IMG/VR virus record: IMGVR_UViG_2541047825_000010
Coordinates: 1-12,963 of that record
Source of the DNA: a virus
Taxonomy: Duplodnaviria; Heunggongvirae; Uroviricota; Caudoviricetes
DNA: 12,963 bases
Reading direction: 5' to 3' (one strand)
Shown: one piece after another, positions 2,324-12,963 of the stretch
Layout: each line of letters begins with the position of its first letter
Numbering within the stretch: position 1 is the stretch's first letter
Translations under genes and position numbers: made by a program
The notes under the pieces: model-generated
What the model saw: the letters and a program-made list of their open reading frames with translations, nothing else
Told to the model about the DNA's origin: nothing
The model's database searches: none

Positions 2324-2596
2324 CTACCTGCCTTGACGAAAGACCTTAAGAACATCGTTAAACTGACTTACGGATATGTCTTCTTTGAGAAGCTTTTCCA
2401 GAAATGCGTTTGGAATGAACGTATATCCCTCCTCTTTTGGTAGAGACGGGAGCAACGCCCTCGCCTCAGCCTTCAGAAGCTCAGTTCTGGCAACTTTCAC
2501 AAAAGAGATTTGAGTTCTTTCATCAATGGAACGAAGGAAGCGCAAACGCTTAGCTTCTTTGTGTGTATCAGGTGGATTAAAGCCTTTGTTTCGCAT
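2324..2596 (-). CDS. Hypothetical protein, 90 aa, between cII and the O-like gene
   Basis: Internal ATG at 2594-2596 preceded by a GAGG Shine-Dalgarno. The longer 193-aa track ORF would overlap cII, so the short start is preferred. No motif recognised. Confidence 0.5.
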   Translation of the reverse strand: MRNKGFNPPDTHKEAKRLRFLRSIDERTQISFVKVARTELLKAEARALLPSLPKEEGYTFIPNAFLEKLLKEDISVSQFNDVLKVFRQGR

Positions 2597-2601
2597 ATAA
2601 T
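2573..2601 (+). promoter_or_regulatory. Candidate Po promoter for the oop-like RNA
   Basis: -10 TATAAT at 2596-2601 with a weak -35 TGGATT at 2573-2578 (17-bp spacer), facing the cII 3' end. Confidence 0.4.
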
Positions 2602-2607
2602 TACCTC

Positions 2608-2672
2608 GTTGGATGTTGTTAAAATTCCATTTGTATTTGATCAGAACGCTCGGTTGCCGCCGGGCGTTTTTT
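2608..2672 (+). ncRNA. oop: oop-like antisense RNA overlapping the 3' end of cII
   Basis: 3' portion CAGAACGCTCGGTTGCCGCCGGGCGTTTTTTATT matches the lambda oop 3' end as recalled. Ends in a terminator (stem 2647-2653 / 2660-2666, T-run 2667-2672) lying inside the cII coding 3' end on the opposite strand. 5' end is estimated from the promoter. Confidence 0.55.
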
Positions 2673-2912
2673 ATTGGTGAGAATCGAAGCAACTTGTCGT
2701 GCCAATCGAGCCATGTCGTCGTCAACGACGCCCCATTCAAGAACAGCAAGCAGCATTGAGAACTTTGGAATCCAGTCCCTCTTCCACCTGCTGATCTGCG
2801 ACTTATCAACTCCCACAGCTTCCGCTGTCTTCTCAGTTCCAAGCATTGCGATTTTGTTAAGCAACGCACTCTCGATTCGTAGAGCCTCGTTGCGTTTGTT
2901 TGCACGAACCAT
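2619..2912 (-). CDS. cII: Transcriptional activator CII, 97 aa
   Basis: MVRANKRNEALRIESALLNKIAMLGTEKTAEAVGVDKSQISRWKRDWIPKF... is near-identical to lambda CII as recalled. Upstream context TAAGGAAATACTTACATATG matches lambda. The track ORF start at 2999 is an in-frame upstream extension. Confidence 0.92.
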   Translation of the reverse strand: MVRANKRNEALRIESALLNKIAMLGTEKTAEAVGVDKSQISRWKRDWIPKFSMLLAVLEWGVVDDDMARLARQVASILTNKKRPAATERSDQIQMEF

Positions 2913-2925
2913 ATGTAAGTATTTC
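2890..2925 (+). promoter_or_regulatory. pRE-type CII-activated promoter
   Basis: TTGC-N6-TTGC at 2890-2903 (TTGCGTTTGTTTGC) spanning the cII start, as in lambda pRE. Directed toward cro and c2. Confidence 0.5.
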
Positions 2926-2970
2926 CTTAACAAATAAGGAGTTATGCGCATCAACTTATGCGCGTTGTAT

Positions 2971-3013
2971 TCCCGCATTTCGGCGGGAATGAGGACCATG
3001 ACTGTTAAAGAGC
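2971..3013 (-). promoter_or_regulatory. nutR (boxA + boxB hairpin) between cro and cII
   Basis: On the minus strand: boxA GCTCTTTAACA and boxB TCCCGCCGAAATGCGGGA. Both are identical to the nutL copies at 4104-4144. Confidence 0.6.
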
Positions 3014-3020
3014 AATTTGC

Positions 3021-3206
3021 TTATGCCGCTTTGCGGTAAGCGCTTTCTTGATACTTCAGGGCGCCAGCTGTAACGACTTCCAGTCGATAGGCGTCTTTCT
3101 CTGGGATGACTTCCTTCCACTGAGAGACTGCTGCGTCGCTAATGCCTAACGCTTTAGCTACAGCACGCTGGGTTCCGAAGTGGTCGATAACATCTTTCTT
3201 GTACAT
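3021..3206 (-). CDS. cro: Cro repressor, P22 type, 61 aa
   Basis: MYKKDVIDHFGTQRAVAKALGISDAAVSQWKEVIPEKDAYRLE... is near-identical to P22 Cro as recalled. Divergent from c2 across the operator region. Confidence 0.92.
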   Translation of the reverse strand: MYKKDVIDHFGTQRAVAKALGISDAAVSQWKEVIPEKDAYRLEVVTAGALKYQESAYRKAA

Positions 3207-3286: not shown

Positions 3287-3937
3287 ATGAAAACTCAATT
3301 GATGGGAGAGCGCATTCGCGCTCGGAGAAAAGAACTCAAGATCAGGCAGGCCGCACTTGGAAAGATGGTCGGCGTGTCTAATGTTGCCATATCTCAGTGG
3401 GAACGCTCTGAGACAGAGCCAAATGGAGAGAATCTTCTCGCCCTGGCTAATGCGTTGAAGTGTTCCCCTGACTATCTGATGAAAGGAGAGGAAAGTCTTT
3501 CAAACATTGCCTATCACAGTAGGCATGATCCAAGAGGGTCATACCCTCTGATTAGCTGGGTGAGCGCAGGATGCTGGATGGAAGCTGTAGAACCATATCA
3601 TAAGCGTGCAATAGATAACTGGTACGATACAACCGTAGACTGTTCAGAAGATTCGTTTTGGTTGGACGTGAAGGGAGACTCAATGACGGCTCCGGCCGGT
3701 CTCAGTATCCCTGAAGGAATGATAATACTCGTCGATCCTGAAGTAGAGCCGCGTAACGGGAAACTGGTAGTTGCAAAGCTCGAAGGAGAAAACGAGGCAA
3801 CTTTCAAGAAGTTAGTTATTGATGCAGGCAGGAAGTTTCTAAAACCACTTAACCCACAATATCCGATGATCGAGATCAACGGAAACTGCAAAATCATCGG
3901 CGTAGTTGTCGATGCAAAACTAGCAAACCTTCCATAA
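3287..3937 (+). CDS. c2: Prophage repressor C2 (CI-type, HTH plus LexA-like S24 autopeptidase domain), 216 aa
   Basis: Near-identical to P22 C2 as recalled (MxTQLMGERIRARRKxLKIRQAALGKMVGVSNVAISQWERSETEPNGENLL..., C-terminal GDSM...KL). Confidence 0.93.
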   Translation: MKTQLMGERIRARRKELKIRQAALGKMVGVSNVAISQWERSETEPNGENLLALANALKCSPDYLMKGEESLSNIAYHSRHDPRGSYPLISWVSAGCWMEAVEPYHKRAIDNWYDTTVDCSEDSFWLDVKGDSMTAPAGLSIPEGMIILVDPEVEPRNGKLVVAKLEGENEATFKKLVIDAGRKFLKPLNPQYPMIEINGNCKIIGVVVDAKLANLP

Positions 3938-3960
3938 GGGGGCATTCGCCCCTTTTTTTT
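3938..3960 (+). terminator. Rho-independent terminator after c2
   Basis: GGGGC-ATTC-GCCCC hairpin followed by eight T. Confidence 0.7.
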
Positions 3961-4002
3961 ATTTCCTTTAAAAATCAAAGCCAAACTTAAGTTACGAAAG
4001 AA

Positions 4003-4064
4003 AATTTAAGTTTTCTTCAAAAATACTCTTGACCATTAATTAAAGAGATCTTAAATTTAAGCCA
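4003..4064 (+). promoter_or_regulatory. OL operators and PL promoter
   Basis: Operator-like 18-mers ATTTAAGTTTTCTTCAAA (4004-4021) and ATTAAAGAGATCTTAAAT (4039-4056). -35 TTGACC (4029-4034), 17-bp spacer, -10 TAAATT (4052-4057), with the operator overlapping the promoter. Confidence 0.55.
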
Positions 4065-4103
4065 TCAGCAGGACGCTGGAAGCCAAACGGAACAGATTGG
4101 CAG

Positions 4104-4144
4104 GCTCTTTAACATTGATGGGATTGTCCCGCCGAAATGCGGGA
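4104..4144 (+). promoter_or_regulatory. nutL (boxA GCTCTTTAACA, boxB hairpin TCCCGC-CGAAAT-GCGGGA)
   Basis: Identical boxA and boxB to the minus-strand copy after cro. Lies in the PL leader upstream of N. Confidence 0.6.
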
Positions 4145-4160
4145 ACCAAAGAGTAGTTGG

Positions 4161-4232
4161 CTTTGGGGTGACGTGAAGTGCAGCTGCACGACGGCAACCG
4201 GAAGATAAGCACCCGGCGCGTCACCGCCAAAG
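4161..4232 (+). promoter_or_regulatory. Long-range stem-loop in the N leader
   Basis: CTTTGGGGTGACG (4161-4173) pairs with CGTCACCGCCAAAG (4219-4232). Encloses a perfect 12-bp palindrome GTGCAGCTGCAC (4178-4189). Lies 20 nt upstream of the N start. Confidence 0.4.
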
Positions 4233-4251
4233 TCAATCATCGGAGGTCAAC

Positions 4252-4551
4252 ATGACAGTAGTCATTACATATCTGGCTGACGATAACGCCAGAAATCGCC
4301 GCAGAGCACGCAGACAGGCTCAACGTGAACAGGCAATGCAAGAGCAGCGACTGGCGCGAAAAATTGCGCTAAAGCTCTCTGGTTGCGTCAGGGCAGATAA
4401 AGCAGCATCACTCGGAAGCCTTCGCTGCAAGAAGGCAGAAGAAGTCGAGCGTAAACAGAACCGTATTTACTACCGCAAGCCACGCAGTGAAATGGGTGTG
4501 ACTTGTGTTGGTCGCCAGAAAATGAAATTAGGCAGCAAACCACTTATTTGA
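4252..4551 (+). CDS. N: Antitermination protein N (P22 gene 24 equivalent), 99 aa
   Basis: N-terminal arginine-rich motif NARNRRRARRQAQREQ. C-terminus ...NRIYYRKPRSEMGVTCVGRQKMKLGSKPLI resembles the lambda N C-terminus as recalled. First gene after PL and nutL. Shine-Dalgarno GGAGG. Confidence 0.85.
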   Translation: MTVVITYLADDNARNRRRARRQAQREQAMQEQRLARKIALKLSGCVRADKAASLGSLRCKKAEEVERKQNRIYYRKPRSEMGVTCVGRQKMKLGSKPLI

Positions 4552-4559
4552 GGTGAGAT

Positions 4560-5030
4560 ATGACAAAATCATGGAGCGTACCTTTTCCTGAATCAGAAAC
4601 TGAACATGATGGAATGCCTGTTTTCTGGAGATTCCAGGCGACAGTTGAAGAAGATGGAATCAAAATATTCGCACTTCAATATATAGCTTTTCATCAGACA
4701 GAGCATTATGCATGGTTGGTTCCTGCGCATTGGATTATTGATTTTAAACCAGCACCAAATCAGTGGTTACGGGAATGGAAACAAAGGAGAAATAGATATG
4801 CAATTAAGAAAGTAGCAAAAAATGCAGAAAGATCTTTTGCATTCCCAACGAAGAAACTTGCCATTGAAAGTTTATTGCGCCGGAAGAAATACCATTTAAT
4901 GAGAATCAAACAAGATTTGGCTGTTGTATCAACTCTTGTTGATGGGATGAAGAATATTGATACATCAACACCAGATATTGAATATAACTTTGGACACAAC
5001 CAAGAAACAGAAAATTGGGTATTCTACTAG
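4560..5030 (+). CDS. Hypothetical protein, 156 aa, AT-rich moron
   Basis: ATG 8 nt after the N stop with Shine-Dalgarno AGGTGAG. G+C is lower than neighbours by eye. No predicted transmembrane segment and no recognised motif. Confidence 0.7.
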   Translation: MTKSWSVPFPESETEHDGMPVFWRFQATVEEDGIKIFALQYIAFHQTEHYAWLVPAHWIIDFKPAPNQWLREWKQRRNRYAIKKVAKNAERSFAFPTKKLAIESLLRRKKYHLMRIKQDLAVVSTLVDGMKNIDTSTPDIEYNFGHNQETENWVFY

Positions 5031-5054
5031 GCCGCATAGTCGGCCTTTATTTTT
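5029..5054 (+). terminator. Rho-independent terminator after the 156-aa ORF
   Basis: AGGCCG-CATAGT-CGGCCT hairpin followed by TTATTTTT. Confidence 0.6.
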
Positions 5055-5076
5055 GGCATAAACAACAGAGGTGAAT

Positions 5077-5211
5077 ATGAACGCAGTTGAATTTACAAAA
5101 TGGATGGCAGAGCAAGATATCACAGGAGCCGACGAAAAGGCTGTGTACTACATGGCTCTGCTATGGATTCACAAAGCAAAAGAGGCTGCAAATGCTCTTG
5201 GAGGTGAGTAA
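5077..5211 (+). CDS. Hypothetical small protein, 44 aa (MNAVEFTKWMAEQDITGADEKAVYYMALLWIHKAKEAANALGGE)
   Basis: Not in the ORF track (below 60 aa). Shine-Dalgarno AGAGGTGA 3-10 nt upstream of the ATG. Stop overlaps the next ORF's start (TAATG). Confidence 0.4.
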   Translation: MNAVEFTKWMAEQDITGADEKAVYYMALLWIHKAKEAANALGGE

Positions 5212-5399
5212 TGAAAGTAAAAATAACTGCTTCTAATACCAGTTTTGTTAGTGTTGGTGATATTACAGAAGTAATAACAAACCATGATGGAACACAAGTT
5301 ATGTGGTCTGATTTTTGTAAAAGATATGAGCGAGTCACTTGGTGTAAACTCGTATGGGGCGTCGAATACGAAGAATTACCTGAAATGCATGACGAATAA
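5211..5399 (+). CDS. Hypothetical protein, 62 aa
   Basis: Translationally coupled to the 44-aa ORF. Occupies the ral/sieB-type interval but has no recognised similarity. Confidence 0.5.
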   Translation: MKVKITASNTSFVSVGDITEVITNHDGTQVMWSDFCKRYERVTWCKLVWGVEYEELPEMHDE

Positions 5400-5494
5400 G
5401 CACTGTGTATTCATTCCAACGAGTGAATACACGGAGCAATGTCGCTCGTAACTAAACAGGAGCCGACTTGTTCTGATTATTGGAAATCTTCTTT

Positions 5495-5520
5495 GCCCTC
5501 CAGTGTGAGGGCCTTTTTAT
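5495..5520 (+). terminator. Rho-independent terminator upstream of cIII
   Basis: GCCCTC-CAGTGT-GAGGGC hairpin followed by CTTTTTAT. Confidence 0.55.
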
Positions 5521-5584
5521 ATGCATACCAATAACGCTTCACTCGAGGCGTTTTCGTTATGCAATCAAACAGAAGGAGCATCCT

Positions 5585-5755
5585 ATGCAACAGTTCGCTA
5601 TTGCAGGGGCGGCATCGGTTCGCCCTTTCAACCCGATTTTATCGGTACAGCATTCACGAAAAAATATTTTAACCGGAGCAGACTTTAAACAACCAAGAAT
5701 GAAAAGTTTGCTCGAAAAGCTTTGGGATATTTTGAAACAACAAGGCCGTCCATGA
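5585..5755 (+). CDS. cIII: CIII (FtsH inhibitor that stabilises CII), 56 aa
   Basis: MQQFAIAG... and the central ...MKSLLEKLWDILKQQG resemble lambda CIII (MQYAIAG...WKRLIDILNQPG, recalled). Shine-Dalgarno AAGGAG. The track ORF start at 5480 lies inside the upstream terminator and was rejected. Confidence 0.8.
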   Translation: MQQFAIAGAASVRPFNPILSVQHSRKNILTGADFKQPRMKSLLEKLWDILKQQGRP

Positions 5756-5922
5756 GTTTTATAGATAACTGGTCAGACGAAGAATTCATTCGTCAGATGA
5801 AAGAATTAATCGGTAACGAAGGAGATATTCATGTCACTTGCAACCACCGTGAAGGAGAGCAAGTTACAGAGACGCATGTACACGCGGCAGGCGTTAATGT
5901 ATCGCCAGAAGGGAGATCGTGA
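5752..5922 (+). CDS. Hypothetical protein, 56 aa, in the Kil position
   Basis: ATG overlaps the cIII stop (ATGA). Lambda kil likewise overlaps the cIII end. No sequence similarity recognised, so the Kil role is positional only. Confidence 0.45.
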   Translation: MSFIDNWSDEEFIRQMKELIGNEGDIHVTCNHREGEQVTETHVHAAGVNVSPEGRS

Positions 5923-6011
5923 AGGTGTTCGCGTCTTTTTAAATGCGGCAAAGACTGAAGTATTAAATCAGCGTTATTTCCTTGGGCCATGTCCATTCTG
6001 AGAACAATCAT

Positions 6012-6617
6012 ATGAGCAAAGAATTTTACGCAAGACTGGCAGCTATTCAGGAGAATCTGAACGCGCCAAAGAATCAGTACAACTCATTCGGCAAATATAA
6101 ATACAGAAGCTGCGAAGACATTCTTGAAGGCGTTAAGCCGTTACTGAATGGCCTGTTTTTATCAATCAGCGATGAAGTTGTGTTGATTGGTGATCGGTAT
6201 TACGTGAAAGCCACGGCAACTATTACCGATGGCGAAAACAGTCATACAGCAACCGCTCTTGCACGAGAGGAAGAAAGCAAGAAAGGAATGGATTCTGCAC
6301 AAGTTACTGGAGCTACAAGCTCTTATGCACGCAAGTATTGCCTCAATGGTTTATTCGGCATTGATGATGCGAAAGATGCAGATACCGACGAGCATAAACA
6401 TCAGCAGAACGCAGCAGCAAAGCAATCAAAACCATCACCTACACCTGAACAGGTTCTAAAAGCATTCACTGACGCAGCAATGCAGAAAAACACCGTAGAA
6501 GAGCTTAAACAGGCGTTCGCCAAAGCGTGGAAGATGCTCGAAGGCACACCGGAGCAGCACAAAGCGCAGGACGTTTACAACATCAGACGAGACGAATTAG
6601 AAGGAGCGGCTGCTTAA
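6012..6617 (+). CDS. erf: Erf, essential recombination function (single-strand annealing protein), 201 aa
   Basis: MSKEFYARLAAIQENLNAPKNQYNSFGKYKYRSCEDILEGVKPLL... closely matches P22 Erf as recalled. First ATG in frame; the track start at 5982 is a TTG. Confidence 0.9.
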   Translation: MSKEFYARLAAIQENLNAPKNQYNSFGKYKYRSCEDILEGVKPLLNGLFLSISDEVVLIGDRYYVKATATITDGENSHTATALAREEESKKGMDSAQVTGATSSYARKYCLNGLFGIDDAKDADTDEHKHQQNAAAKQSKPSPTPEQVLKAFTDAAMQKNTVEELKQAFAKAWKMLEGTPEQHKAQDVYNIRRDELEGAAA

Positions 6618-7000
6618 TGGCACATTCGATTACAGTAAGACTAAACAAACCCGCAAGAGAGTTTCAGGCCGGGGAAAATATCGGATTCAACATCCGTGCT
6701 GGCGTTCAGTATTACGATCGCCAGACAAAAAAGAAAGAATGGACAAACTACAGCGCCGTTGTATTTGCCAAGCCGGGAGCGCAAGCGGATTACTACCGTA
6801 GTGTTCTTGTTGAAGGTGGCATTGTGGAAATTACCGGAGAAAACATCAGGGTTGATGTTTATCAGGGGCAAAATGGTCAATCAATCACTCTTGAATTACT
6901 GAATGCAAAGATTGGATTTGCAGCTTCAGGAAACAGCCAACAGCAGCAAAGTAGCAATCATCAAAATCATCCTGAATACGACGATTCAATTCCATTCTAG
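6617..7000 (+). CDS. Compact SSB-like single-stranded DNA-binding protein, 127 aa
   Basis: C-terminal tip PEYDDSIPF resembles the conserved bacterial SSB tail DDDIPF, after a Q-rich linker and a short strand-rich N-terminal domain. Shine-Dalgarno AAGGAG. TAATG overlap with erf. Confidence 0.65.
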   Translation: MAHSITVRLNKPAREFQAGENIGFNIRAGVQYYDRQTKKKEWTNYSAVVFAKPGAQADYYRSVLVEGGIVEITGENIRVDVYQGQNGQSITLELLNAKIGFAASGNSQQQQSSNHQNHPEYDDSIPF

Positions 7001-7023: not shown

Positions 7024-7317
7024 ATGCCAGCGCCTCTGTATGGTGCGGATGACCCGCGCCGCTGTTCCGGCAATTCCGTATCGGAGGTGCTGGATAAATT
7101 CAGGAAAAACTACAACCGGATAATGTCGATACCGCAGGAAACGAAAGAGGAAAAGGAATTTCGCCATTGTATATGGCTTGCAGAGAAAGAAGAACGCGAG
7201 CGAATTTACCAGACATCAATCCGACCATTCCGCAAAGCCACATATACCCACTTCCCTGAAATTGACCCGCGCCTGCGTAATTACCGCTCACGCTATGGCG
7301 CTATCAGTAATGACTGA
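7024..7317 (+). CDS. Hypothetical protein, 97 aa
   Basis: Shine-Dalgarno TAAGGA 7 nt upstream. Position after erf and the 97-aa length are compatible with P22 Abc2 (anti-RecBCD), but this rests on synteny and length only. Confidence 0.6.
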
Positions 7318-10518: not shown

Positions 10519-10863
10519 ATGTCAGATTTGGCTATGAAGATTTTGAAATGGCAAACGACTGGCGATGTTGGCATCAGTAGCGCAACTCTTGCCTCAATCG
10601 CATGTGGACTGAAAAAGAATATCTATGGTCATCACTTCGGCGCTCCACATGACGCAGCAGATTTCCGACGATGCGTTGCACTTGTTGAGCAGATTCCAGA
10701 AGTCAGAGATTCATTCGACAAGGTTGCAAAGCGTGTTCCGGCATTCAAAGGCATTCTCAACGAATGGGATTCCCTCGTTGCTCTGTTGAAGTCTGAAATG
10801 AAGATACACGGAAACAAAGCACCAGAGACTTACAGAAGAATTAGCGAGTTACGCAAGGATTAA
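10519..10863 (+). CDS. Hypothetical protein, 114 aa
   Basis: Shine-Dalgarno GGAGA 6 nt upstream. The gene sits between the terminator at 10484-10506 and the two downstream terminators. No family recognised. Confidence 0.6.
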   Translation: MSDLAMKILKWQTTGDVGISSATLASIACGLKKNIYGHHFGAPHDAADFRRCVALVEQIPEVRDSFDKVAKRVPAFKGILNEWDSLVALLKSEMKIHGNKAPETYRRISELRKD

Positions 10864-10868
10864 CCACA

Positions 10869-10945
10869 GCCTCACACTCGATGAGGCCTGTTCATTTCTC
10901 AAGATATCCAGACCTACCATCGCCGCATCAATGCGGTTTTTTATT
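10869..10945 (+). terminator. Two tandem terminator hairpins
   Basis: GCCTCA-CACTCGA-TGAGGC (10869-10887, weak T-run) and CCGCA-TCAA-TGCGG followed by TTTTTTATT (10923-10945). Confidence 0.55.
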
Positions 10946-10952
10946 ACCTGAT

Positions 10953-10968
10953 TTGCAGGTTCGATTCC
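10953..10968 (+). other. tRNA 3'-half fragment: T-arm portion TTGCAGGTTCGATTCC (att-associated)
   Basis: 16-nt match to the T-stem and T-loop of a tRNA (argW-type tRNA-Arg as recalled). Similarity stops right after GATTCC. Confidence 0.4.
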
Positions 10969-10987
10969 CTATTCGGAGATAGCACTC

Positions 10988-11188
10988 ATGCAACACGAAC
11001 TACAGCCTGATTCACTGGTTGATTTGAAATTCATCATGGCCGATACTGGCTTTGGTAAAACCTTCATCTACGACCGGATTAAGTCCGGCGACCTGCCAAA
11101 AGCCAAAGTTATCCACGGGCGAGCAAGATGGTTATATCGTGACCATTGTGAATTCAAAAATAAGCTCTTAAGCCGCGCCAATGGGTAA
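10988..11188 (+). CDS. AlpA/Xis-like excisionase-type DNA-binding protein, 66 aa
   Basis: LVDLKFIMADTGFGKTFIYDRIKSGDLPKAKVIHGRARW fits the AlpA-family HTH pattern as recalled. Shine-Dalgarno GGAGA. Lies next to the att-like tRNA fragments. Confidence 0.65.
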   Translation: MQHELQPDSLVDLKFIMADTGFGKTFIYDRIKSGDLPKAKVIHGRARWLYRDHCEFKNKLLSRANG

Positions 11189-11261
11189 AATAGCGGGTAA
11201 AATATTTCTCACATCTAAAAAACACCATTCTAATCAATCCCCTGCCGCGTCAAGTAGATGT

Positions 11262-11276
11262 CTGCAGGGGACACCA
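11262..11276 (+). other. tRNA 3'-end fragment CTGCAGGGGACACCA (acceptor 3' strand plus CCA; att-associated)
   Basis: Matches the 3' terminus of the same tRNA. No corresponding 5' half anywhere in the window. Confidence 0.45.
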
Positions 11277-11662
11277 GATACCCTTCAAACGATATCTACC
11301 TTCACCCCGTAAAAGATAAGTTTGGCAGCACATTTGCCCTATCTACTCATTTTTCCTGCAACAGGTTGAAATCTCAACACGGTCAGAAAACGCTGATGAC
11401 TAAACAGCCCTGGGCTGGGCGATGTAACCATCACACACAATCCTGATCGCGAAATATGGCGTGACTTGATACTTCACTCCACAATGCTTTCCTTGATGAA
11501 TTCGCAGGCCCGTGATACACGGGACAGGTCGCTGAATTACGACAATGCCCTGGAAATCAGCGAGCCGTGTATCCGGAGTACATTTGAGCGACTGTACCAG
11601 AACATGAATGAGGCGTTTGGATTAGGCGATTATTAGCAGGGCTAAGCATTTTGGTATTATTA

Positions 11663-11706
11663 TTTTCCGGTTGAGGGATATAGAGCTATCGACAACAACC
11701 GGAAAA
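11663..11706. terminator. Inverted repeat, candidate bidirectional terminator at the cscB 3' end
   Basis: TTTTCCGGTTG (11663-11673) and CAACCGGAAAA (11696-11706) with a 22-nt loop and AT-rich flanks. Lies between convergent reading frames. Confidence 0.4.
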
Positions 11707-11715
11707 AGTTTACGT

Positions 11716-12963
11716 TTATATTGCTGAAGGTACTGGCGTTTCCATCACTATTTGCTCACGTTTTTTACTCAGGAAGAAAATGCCAAATAGCAACATCAGG
11801 CAGACAATACCCGAAATTGCGAAAAAAACCGTCTGGTAGCCTGCGTGGTCAAAGAGTATCCCAGTCGGCGTTGAAAGCAGCACAATCCCCAACGAACTGG
11901 CAATTTGAAAACCAATCAGAAAGATCGTCGACGACAGGCGCTTATCAAAATTTGCCACGCTGTATTTGAAGACGGATATGACACAAAGTGGAACCTCAAT
12001 GGCATGTAACAGCTTCACTAATGAAATAATCCAGGGGTTAACGAATAGCGCGCAGGAAAGGATACGCAACGCCATAATCACAACACCGATAAGTAATGCA
12101 TTTTTTGGCCCTACCCGATTCACAAAGAAAGGAATAATCGCCATGCACAGCGCTTCGAGTACCACCTGGAATGAGTTGAGATAACCATACAGGCGCGTTC
12201 CTACATCGTGGGATTCGAATAAACCTGCATAAAAGACAGGAAAGAGTTGTTGATCAAAAATGTTATAGAAAGACCACGTCCCCACAATAAATATGACGAA
12301 AACCCAGAAGTTTCGATCCTTGAAAACTGCGATAAAATCCTCTTTTTTTACCCCTCCCACATCCGCCGCTACGCACTGGTGTTCCTGCTCTTTAAAACGC
12401 ATGTTGATCATCATAAATACAGCGCCAAATAGAGAGACCAACCAGAAGTTGATATGGGGACTGATACTAAAAAATATGCCAGCAAAGAATGCGCCAATAG
12501 CATAGCCAAAAGATCCCCAGGCGCGCGCTGTTCCATATTCGAAATGAAAATTTCGCGCCATTTTTTCGGTGAAGCTGTCAAGCAAACCGCATCCCGCCAG
12601 ATACCCCAGACCAAAAAAGAGCGCCCCCAGAATTAAACCTACAGAAAAATTGCTTTGCAGTAACGGTTCATAAACGTAAATCATAAACGGTCCGGTCAAG
12701 ACCAAGATGAAACTCATACACCAGATGAGCGGTTTCTTCAGACCGAGTTTATCCTGAACGATGCCGTAGAACATCATAAATAGAATGCTGGTAAACTGGT
12801 TGACCGAATAAAGTGTACCTAATTCCGTCCCTGTCAACCCTAGATGTCCTTTCAGCCAAATAGCGTATAATGACCACCACAGCGACCAGGAAATAAAAAA
12901 GAGAAATGAGTAACTGGATGCAAAACGATAGTACGCATTTCTGAATGGAATATTCAGTGCCAT
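11716..12963 (-). CDS. cscB: Sucrose:H+ symporter, LacY-family MFS (CscB-like), 415 aa
   Basis: Twelve-helix hydrophobic profile. Clear LacY-like blocks (DKLGLKK, GPFMIYVYEPLLQ, EYGTARAWGSFGYAIG, PKNALLIG). N-terminus MALNIPFRNAYYRF matches CscB as recalled. Start codon is at the window edge. Confidence 0.85.
   Translation of the reverse strand: MALNIPFRNAYYRFASSYSFLFFISWSLWWSLYAIWLKGHLGLTGTELGTLYSVNQFTSILFMMFYGIVQDKLGLKKPLIWCMSFILVLTGPFMIYVYEPLLQSNFSVGLILGALFFGLGYLAGCGLLDSFTEKMARNFHFEYGTARAWGSFGYAIGAFFAGIFFSISPHINFWLVSLFGAVFMMINMRFKEQEHQCVAADVGGVKKEDFIAVFKDRNFWVFVIFIVGTWSFYNIFDQQLFPVFYAGLFESHDVGTRLYGYLNSFQVVLEALCMAIIPFFVNRVGPKNALLIGVVIMALRILSCALFVNPWIISLVKLLHAIEVPLCVISVFKYSVANFDKRLSSTIFLIGFQIASSLGIVLLSTPTGILFDHAGYQTVFFAISGIVCLMLLFGIFFLSKKREQIVMETPVPSAI

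Follow-up and report, generated by a model that had tools for sequence, protein, structure and literature searches.

A gene of the HK97 gp45 family coupled to N in a lambdoid prophage, and what its protein may do during infection

The window analyzed here, a stretch of 12,963 nucleotides in all, covers the early region of an E. coli prophage, a lambdoid mosaic of the P22/HK97-like kind. Genes for a DnaB-like helicase, an O-like replication protein, a cII-like protein and Cro are on the - strand and run leftward. Inside the O-like gene, at 1764-1906, there are CATGTGCGG-type repeats with a spacing of 12 nt that are probably origin iterons; this run encodes a His/Ala-rich low-complexity stretch of protein and coincides with a strong AT-skew excursion. 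The P22 c2-like repressor gene (3287-3937) carries HTH_3 and Peptidase_S24 domains, and from there the pL operon runs rightward. The pL-like promoter, TTGACC-17-TAAATT, is found on the + strand at 4029-4057, where it agrees with the consensus at 9 of 12 positions. P22-type operator half-sites lie on either side of it and can be read in the sequence as palindromes of the AnTTAAG/CTTAAnT type. A nutL-like site follows at 4103-4143 (+), with boxA, GGCTCTTTAACA, at 4103-4114 and a boxB-like hairpin, CCCGC-CGAAAT-GCGGG, at 4128-4143. Because this assignment was made by reading the sequence directly against the known boxA consensus, we treat the site as a putative nutL.

The ORF at 4252-4551 (+), of 99 aa, was taken for N in an earlier note made from the sequence alone, and this is borne out by its match to the N-like antiterminator family phrog_271 (E 4.8e-37); the Pfam N_peptide profile gives 8e-4, which is below the Pfam cut-off. 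Its C-terminus, ...GVTCVGRQKMKLGSKPLI, is of the lambda type, and may be compared with that of lambda N itself, which we take to end in ...GITCSGRQKIKGKSIPLI. It is followed by the subject of this report, orf156 (4560-5030, +), which encodes a putative early accessory protein of 156 aa belonging to the HK97 gp45 family. Next come terminator A (5029-5054, +), a hairpin and T-run forming the first intrinsic terminator after pL in the window, and two small ORFs: orf46 (5077-5211, +), of 44-46 aa, which falls in phrog_24660, a family label without a function, and orf62 (5211-5399, +; phrog_10407), which is AT-rich, with a GC of 34.9% and a GC3 of 23.8%. A conserved, structured non-coding linker ending in terminator B occupies 5393-5520 (+). 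The next gene, at 5585-5755 (+), matches the CIII family phrog_550 with E 1e-22 and places orf156 between N and cIII, as had been claimed. Between cIII and erf there is a 56-aa ORF (5752-5922) whose family, phrog_2123, is labelled 'recombinase', and profile matches identify genes for Erf (5982-6617), an SSB-like protein (6617-7000) and Abc2 (7024-7317). Gp33, an uncharacterized protein from the cIII-flanked Erf/Abc2 locus of HK75, is reported to activate the P2 OLD defense (preprint 10.64898/2026.07.10.737580, 2026).

The ORF on which the earlier note had focused is a real gene. Its product is 98.7% identical to gp45 of HK97 and is matched over residues 1-156 of 156 by the profile of phrog_1636, a family of 'unknown function' (E 4.1e-111). 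It is under purifying selection, with dN/dS values of 0.00-0.17 for all pairs of six alleles from E. coli phages, and an alignment of 21 homologues, with identities as low as 55%, has 40 invariant columns. Proteins that are 97-98% identical and are named 'hypothetical protein' occur in 933W (ST933Wp19), H-19B, phi24B (vb_24B_11c), BP-4795, Stx2 phage 86 and Min27, and many Stx1a and Stx2a phages also carry the protein at this level of identity. In all, 83 phage records match orf156. Of 5426 complete E. coli genomes searched with Megablast, 825 gave a match, and in 593 of these it spans at least 80% of the query. The protein is held in two 90% clusters of 798 and 639 members, where the source names are all 'hypothetical' or 'prophage protein', and none of the family records examined bears an annotation other than 'hypothetical'. 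A literature search by accession or locus tag found no paper naming orf156 or HK97 gp45; the matches to 'gp45' were to proteins of other phages, for example HK578 and epsilon15. Nor did searches on 933W locus tags, on anti-defense in lambdoid phages or on HK97 escape mutants recover a mention of the gene. In a 2025 study of the EHEC phages phi296, phi315 and phi419 the anti-defense models of DefenseFinder recognized only methyltransferases, Ral and Gam (PMC12502783), and these three phages carry the gp45 gene. Judging from these comparisons, orf156 is a long-catalogued ORF that was sequenced with HK97 and never assigned a function, rather than a new find, and a specialist would not be surprised to meet a catalogued hypothetical protein in a well-known mosaic slot.

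The coupling of orf156 to N is as tight as had been supposed. The N stop codon (TGA, 4549-4551) overlaps the Shine-Dalgarno sequence that serves orf156 (GAGGTGA, 4550-4556, +), and the gap between this stop and the ATG at 4560 is 8 nt. The same GAGGTGA precedes gp45 in HK97, 933W and ZH063, and in 683R2, a Lederbergvirus, the junction between N and gp45 is as tight as in the window. In HK97, 933W and phi24B the same protein, at 97-99% identity, is likewise encoded right after N, but there an H-19B-type N ends 58 nt upstream of gp45, whereas in the window a lambda-type N extends to within 8 nt. The 58 nt immediately 5' of gp45 are nevertheless identical in the window (4494-4551), HK97 and 933W (2943-3000 and 3383-3440 in loci L001 and L007 of our comparison). 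In the window this block encodes the C-terminal 19 residues of the lambda-type N and in ZH063 it likewise encodes the N C-terminus, while in HK97 and 933W, where N stops earlier, it is non-coding. Since both the window and ZH063 use the block as the end of a lambda-type N, it seems that gp45 was originally coupled to an N of this type, and later swaps of the N module seem to have left a relic of the N 3' end in HK97 and 933W. An alignment of the N proteins shows that gp45 is now found with three different N types.

Terminator A was described in the earlier note as a private rho-independent terminator of orf156. A terminator-like site is indeed present at 5029-5054. It has a 6-bp stem with five G-C pairs (AGGCCG-CATAGT-CGGCCT, 5029-5046) followed by TTTATTTTT, and it is one of 8 sites found in a terminator scan of the region, against 2.2 expected. 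The fold z-score of the 51-nt window that covers it is an unremarkable -0.79, because the hairpin is short. The terminator is not private, for the same element follows other genes. A 32-bp piece at 5029-5060, consisting of GGCCGCATAGTCGGCC and TTTATTTTTGGCATAAA, is 100% identical in four genomes and in different contexts (3000-3030 in locus L004, 3001-3032 in L005 and L006). It lies directly 3' of the gene for Nmad5 in ZH063 and EC571 and directly 3' of a 60-aa ORF in NT1F31. Because it follows Nmad5 in ZH063, it is upstream of gp45 there, and among the matches to E. coli genomes it is also found alone, without gp45. Conversely, in most E. coli matches homology ends at the gp45 stop codon (query position 479), as it does in 16 of the 21 gp45-bearing records of a spread sample. 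Terminator A thus does not travel with the gene; to judge from its distribution, it looks like a portable module-boundary sequence that is shared between cargo genes.

In HK97, 933W and ZH063 gp45 is directly adjoined by a conserved non-coding block of about 130 nt, which is identical to the linker found here at about 5393-5530, and in HK97, 933W and phi24B the gene is followed directly by this linker and terminator B. In the window, terminator A and two small ORFs intervene. Given that gp45 adjoins the linker in HK97, 933W and ZH063, the window has an insertion composed of terminator A, orf46 and orf62; the two ORFs (5077-5399) make up an AT-rich insert that is absent from HK97 and 933W at that position. 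The linker RNA is strongly structured, with a predicted dG of -45.9 kcal/mol and a z-score of -4.81, and none of 200 shuffled sequences was as stable. Within it are two stems, one of them a perfect 12-bp hairpin (5405-5432), and it ends in terminator B (GCCCTCCAGTGTGAGGGC plus a T-run, 5495-5512). A putative terminator is marked at this position in the HK97 record, and a search of 3900-6000 against Rfam gave no match. The linker may represent the tL1 region, or else a processing site of the RNase III type or a small RNA.

With a GC of 36.5%, compared with 47.3% for the rest of the phage part, and a GC3 of 28.7%, orf156 is as poor in G+C as had been judged by eye. In a sliding-window check only 0.4% of all 471-nt windows are as GC-poor, and the minimum for the entire window falls within orf156. 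Genes of the gp45 family lie 3-10 points under their flanks in 12 of 12 loci examined, a deficit that is partly due to amino-acid composition. A deviant composition is also a mark of the HK97-type morons, such as gp15, which consist of a promoter, a gene and a terminator. The resemblance extends to the terminator immediately downstream, but this is the shared element described above, and no autonomous promoter was detected: a consensus scan of the + strand from nutL to the ATG (4150-4560) found no sigma-70-like site with at least 8 of 12 matches. Both the promoter and the terminator scans register consensus matches only and leave room for Rho-dependent termination or a weak internal promoter. 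Of the three moron hallmarks only the composition that departs from the flanks is therefore present, while a promoter and a terminator belonging to the gene are not, and the earlier description of orf156 as a moron is weakened.

Because there is no promoter-like site between nutL and the ATG, orf156 is regarded as a gene of the pL operon, and the repressor should silence it in the lysogen. The pL promoter of lambdoid phages is shut off by repression in the lysogen, transcripts made before N appears end at the first terminators (tL1), and N then gives read-through (PMC8065619). To judge from the anatomy of the operon, orf156 would be transcribed from pL on the N message and translated from the Shine-Dalgarno sequence that overlaps the N stop codon. 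Given its position, after nutL and N but before the first intrinsic terminator, we infer that it would accompany N as a product of the immediate-early, N-independent phase, whether in infection or on induction, and that it would be silent in the repressed prophage. If the order of these elements is a guide, orf156 and N are probably the only two proteins made before antitermination. This immediate-early status is not universal, since terminator A separates N and gp45 in ZH063.

The interval between N and cIII is a variable slot, and the view that it holds accessory cargo is supported by the genes that other prophages carry there, which include Ral and Nmad5. In ZH063, N is followed by Nmad5, gp45 and DUF2528, and in phi296 by small ORFs, then Ral, then gp45. 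In EC571 a reverse-strand ORF comes after N, and then Ral and Nmad5. In Sakai Sp5 an unrelated 83-aa ORF follows N and gp45 is absent from the slot. Nmad5 (PF18757, 9e-72), a putative nucleotide-modification protein, occupies 2388-3011 in both L004 and L005 of the compared loci, in the N-proximal position and sometimes beside Ral. As far as gene content can tell, this pattern suggests that the slot collects DNA-modification or anti-restriction cargo. The Ral protein of lambda and P22 is in this respect a close parallel to orf156, in that both are encoded by small accessory genes of the early pL operon in the same variable slot between N and cIII. Ral, however, is a protein of 66 aa, compared with the 156 aa of orf156, and the two have no sequence similarity, orf156 matching no significant Pfam or NCBIfam family. 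They are not alternatives either, because in phi296, where Ral is annotated as a separate gene, it adjoins gp45 side by side.

The orf156 protein has a computed pI of 9.07 and a GRAVY of -0.59. Residues 61-120 include 18 Lys/Arg and have a pI of 11.1, and this basic core is flanked by acidic ends. The highest mean Kyte-Doolittle hydropathy over 19 residues is 0.56, from which we conclude that there is no membrane segment, and the earlier view of the protein as soluble stands. An AlphaFold model built with the wide-family alignment has a pLDDT of 95 and a pTM of 0.82, and all five models reach at least 93.6. The predicted fold has an N-terminal sheet of three long antiparallel strands (19-55) and two short helices; a short hairpin of basic character (83-95) follows, and then an amphipathic helix 33 residues long (98-130). 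The statement that the protein resembles no characterized family is upheld by profile and structure searches alike. No significant family was found in Pfam or NCBIfam, and when 77 diverse members of the family were submitted to Pfam, only four single noise matches resulted. The best match in PADLOC-DB 2.0, which represents the known anti-phage defense proteins, was Cas1_II with E 0.013 and 12.8 bits, which is noise, as is the best PDB sequence match in a profile search (twinfilin, E 0.21). A fold search of the PDB with the model matched no solved structure. Among the structures in BFVD there are 14 relatives with E < 1e-3, all of them from phages and none functionally annotated. The presence of a FAFxTKxxA motif had raised the idea of an AP2 or integrase-arm DNA-binding domain, and the three-strand-plus-helix fold of AP2 and the integrase N-terminus, like the Tudor-like folds of PipX and PWWP, was considered among the known systems. 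For the AP2 or integrase-arm idea, profile comparison by hhalign gave probabilities of only 0.6% and 0.4%, and it was rejected.

An exhaustive profile search enlarges the family to 87 representatives at E <=1e-3, most of them 130-160 aa in length and 20-28% identical to orf156. In an alignment of 77 members only four positions, G33, T47, K87 and A101, come close to invariance, a pattern that speaks against an enzyme. Positions of His and Cys are not conserved across the wide family, and a metal-binding or catalytic site was therefore rejected. With so few conserved residues, a basic core and a long amphipathic helix, the protein may instead be a binder, which would act on nucleic acid or on an acidic host factor and not by catalysis, although a basic patch is no proof of nucleic-acid binding. 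The anti-restriction protein types T7 Ocr and ArdA offer a parallel in timing, since they are among the first genes expressed on entry, as orf156 would be if its position is a reliable guide. The parallel does not extend to the protein itself: DNA mimics are strongly acidic, in contrast to the pI of 9.07 (11 in the core) of orf156, and its model matches the fold of no solved structure.

More distant relatives place the gene in a range of settings. Homologues in Pectobacterium and Brenneria prophages, 57-62% identical, are encoded by the last gene of the early-left operon, before xis-int, so that proximity to N is not essential to the role of the protein. The homologue lies with small early-left genes, between the repressor side and the integrase, in Marinobacterium, Pseudomaricurvus, two metagenomic prophages and Pseudomonas phage Medea1, and its operon often also contains YqaJ, SSB, RdgC or a cytosine methylase. 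For Salmonella phage NX263 and a Vibrio phage the position is at or near the head of an early operon, before genes for DNA binding or replication, and in the virulent Erwinia phage phiEa2809 the homologue lies among genes for dexA, topoisomerase II, a QueC-like protein and dCMP deaminase. Relatives recognized by fold only are present in other non-lambdoid phages as well. The distant members have no conserved partner gene, and the up- and downstream neighbors are unrelated between loci. With no constant neighbor, orf156 is thus a stand-alone gene, always in an early operon and always co-oriented with it. The relatives in a virulent phage, taken with the fixed early-operon place, point to a role within the infection cycle.

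As a whole, these results lead us to propose, tentatively and without regarding it as established, that orf156 encodes a stand-alone, non-enzymatic, soluble accessory protein of early infection that likely serves host take-over or counter-defense. Of the roles considered, take-over or counter-defense appears the most likely, although as a specific assignment it is doubtful; it is favored because the gene would be expressed very early and because Ral and Nmad5 are found in the same slot, the latter argument being guilt by association. We would extend the proposal further only as a rather unlikely generalization, namely that the gp45 family may consist of widespread, unrecognized early proteins of a fold that the PDB lacks, whose immediate-early placement would serve to neutralize a host defense or to seize a host nucleic-acid process. 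The companion idea, that phages with a lambda-type N, including Shiga-toxin phages, would place the gene in an N-independent transcript ahead of other phage genes, we likewise consider on the unlikely side. A role in counter-defense or take-over, if true, would matter for the host range of Shiga-toxin phages and for their induction, and the probable timing before antitermination makes orf156 a cheap and well-defined target for knockout or expression.

Three other explanations must be weighed against take-over or counter-defense. The one that comes nearest to it in likelihood, while itself unlikely, is that the protein assists DNA metabolism: it would bind phage or host DNA and help in recombination, replication or modification, not against a defense system, and would work with the Erf, SSB and Abc2 module or with phage methyltransferases. 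The basic core of the protein is compatible with such a helper, and its genomic company is suggestive. Operons that contain the gene also encode YqaJ exonuclease, SSB, RdgC, Erf and DNA methylases; of the 11 phage or prophage contexts outside E. coli that were examined, 5 have a cytosine methyltransferase, matched by PF00145 or annotated as such, within about 3 kb in the early-left operon of the gene; and the phiEa2809 homologue sits between the dexA exonuclease, topoisomerase II and nucleotide-metabolism genes. Early-left operons carry such functions anyway, however, so that the association may be positional, and no gene is consistently adjacent among the loci. Further, HK97 and 933W share gp45 and yet differ in their recombination modules (Erf versus Red). 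Another explanation, that orf156 is a regulator of phage gene expression or of the choice between lysis and lysogeny, for instance by binding RNA or DNA and modulating early transcripts or the action of N, would account for the ancient physical linkage of the gene to the 3' end of a lambda-type N, for a basic core that possibly binds nucleic acid, and for the conserved, strongly structured RNA element that comes after gp45 in HK97, 933W and ZH063. We consider it improbable. Outside the E. coli phages the gene is not beside an N-like gene, and gp45 coexists with three different types of N. Moreover, it is absent from the window-like slot of Sakai Sp5, and we know of no counterpart in lambda itself; the protein is therefore dispensable for lambdoid regulation.

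The earlier note had proposed an exclusion, defense or anti-defense function, and of these three guesses protection of the lysogen, by exclusion or defense expressed from the prophage in the manner of sieB or HK97 gp15, is the least favored and has little to recommend it in our estimate. The composition of orf156 is AT-rich and cargo-like, a terminator follows it immediately, it is very common among E. coli prophages and it occupies the interval that in lambda and P22 holds sieB, which determines superinfection exclusion. Yet sieB is a lysogen-expressed gene with a promoter of its own, whereas orf156 is without a promoter-like site and is translationally coupled to N within the repressor-controlled pL operon. 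The protein is soluble, with no hydrophobic or membrane segment of the sort expected of a SieB-like protein, and its best PADLOC score (E 0.013, 12.8 bits) is below significance. Terminator A is a shared junction element. Relatives by both sequence and fold are present in the virulent Erwinia phage, and relatives by fold in other non-lambdoid phages, the gene being always inside early operons. In addition, a text search of a paper on the genes of phi24B that are expressed in lysogen cultures did not recover the locus suffix or accession of this gene, which is weak evidence against the proposal. A protein acting within the infection cycle accords better with this distribution.

The translation at the right end of the window looks by eye like that of cscB, the sucrose permease gene. 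Between the last gene of the pL operon, which ends at 10863, and cscB (10863-11716) we found no integrase ORF and no tRNA gene; the interval contains small ORFs and a 66-aa ORF (10988-11188) that appears by eye to be AlpA/Xis-like. The end of the prophage near 10863-11716 may be truncated or rearranged.
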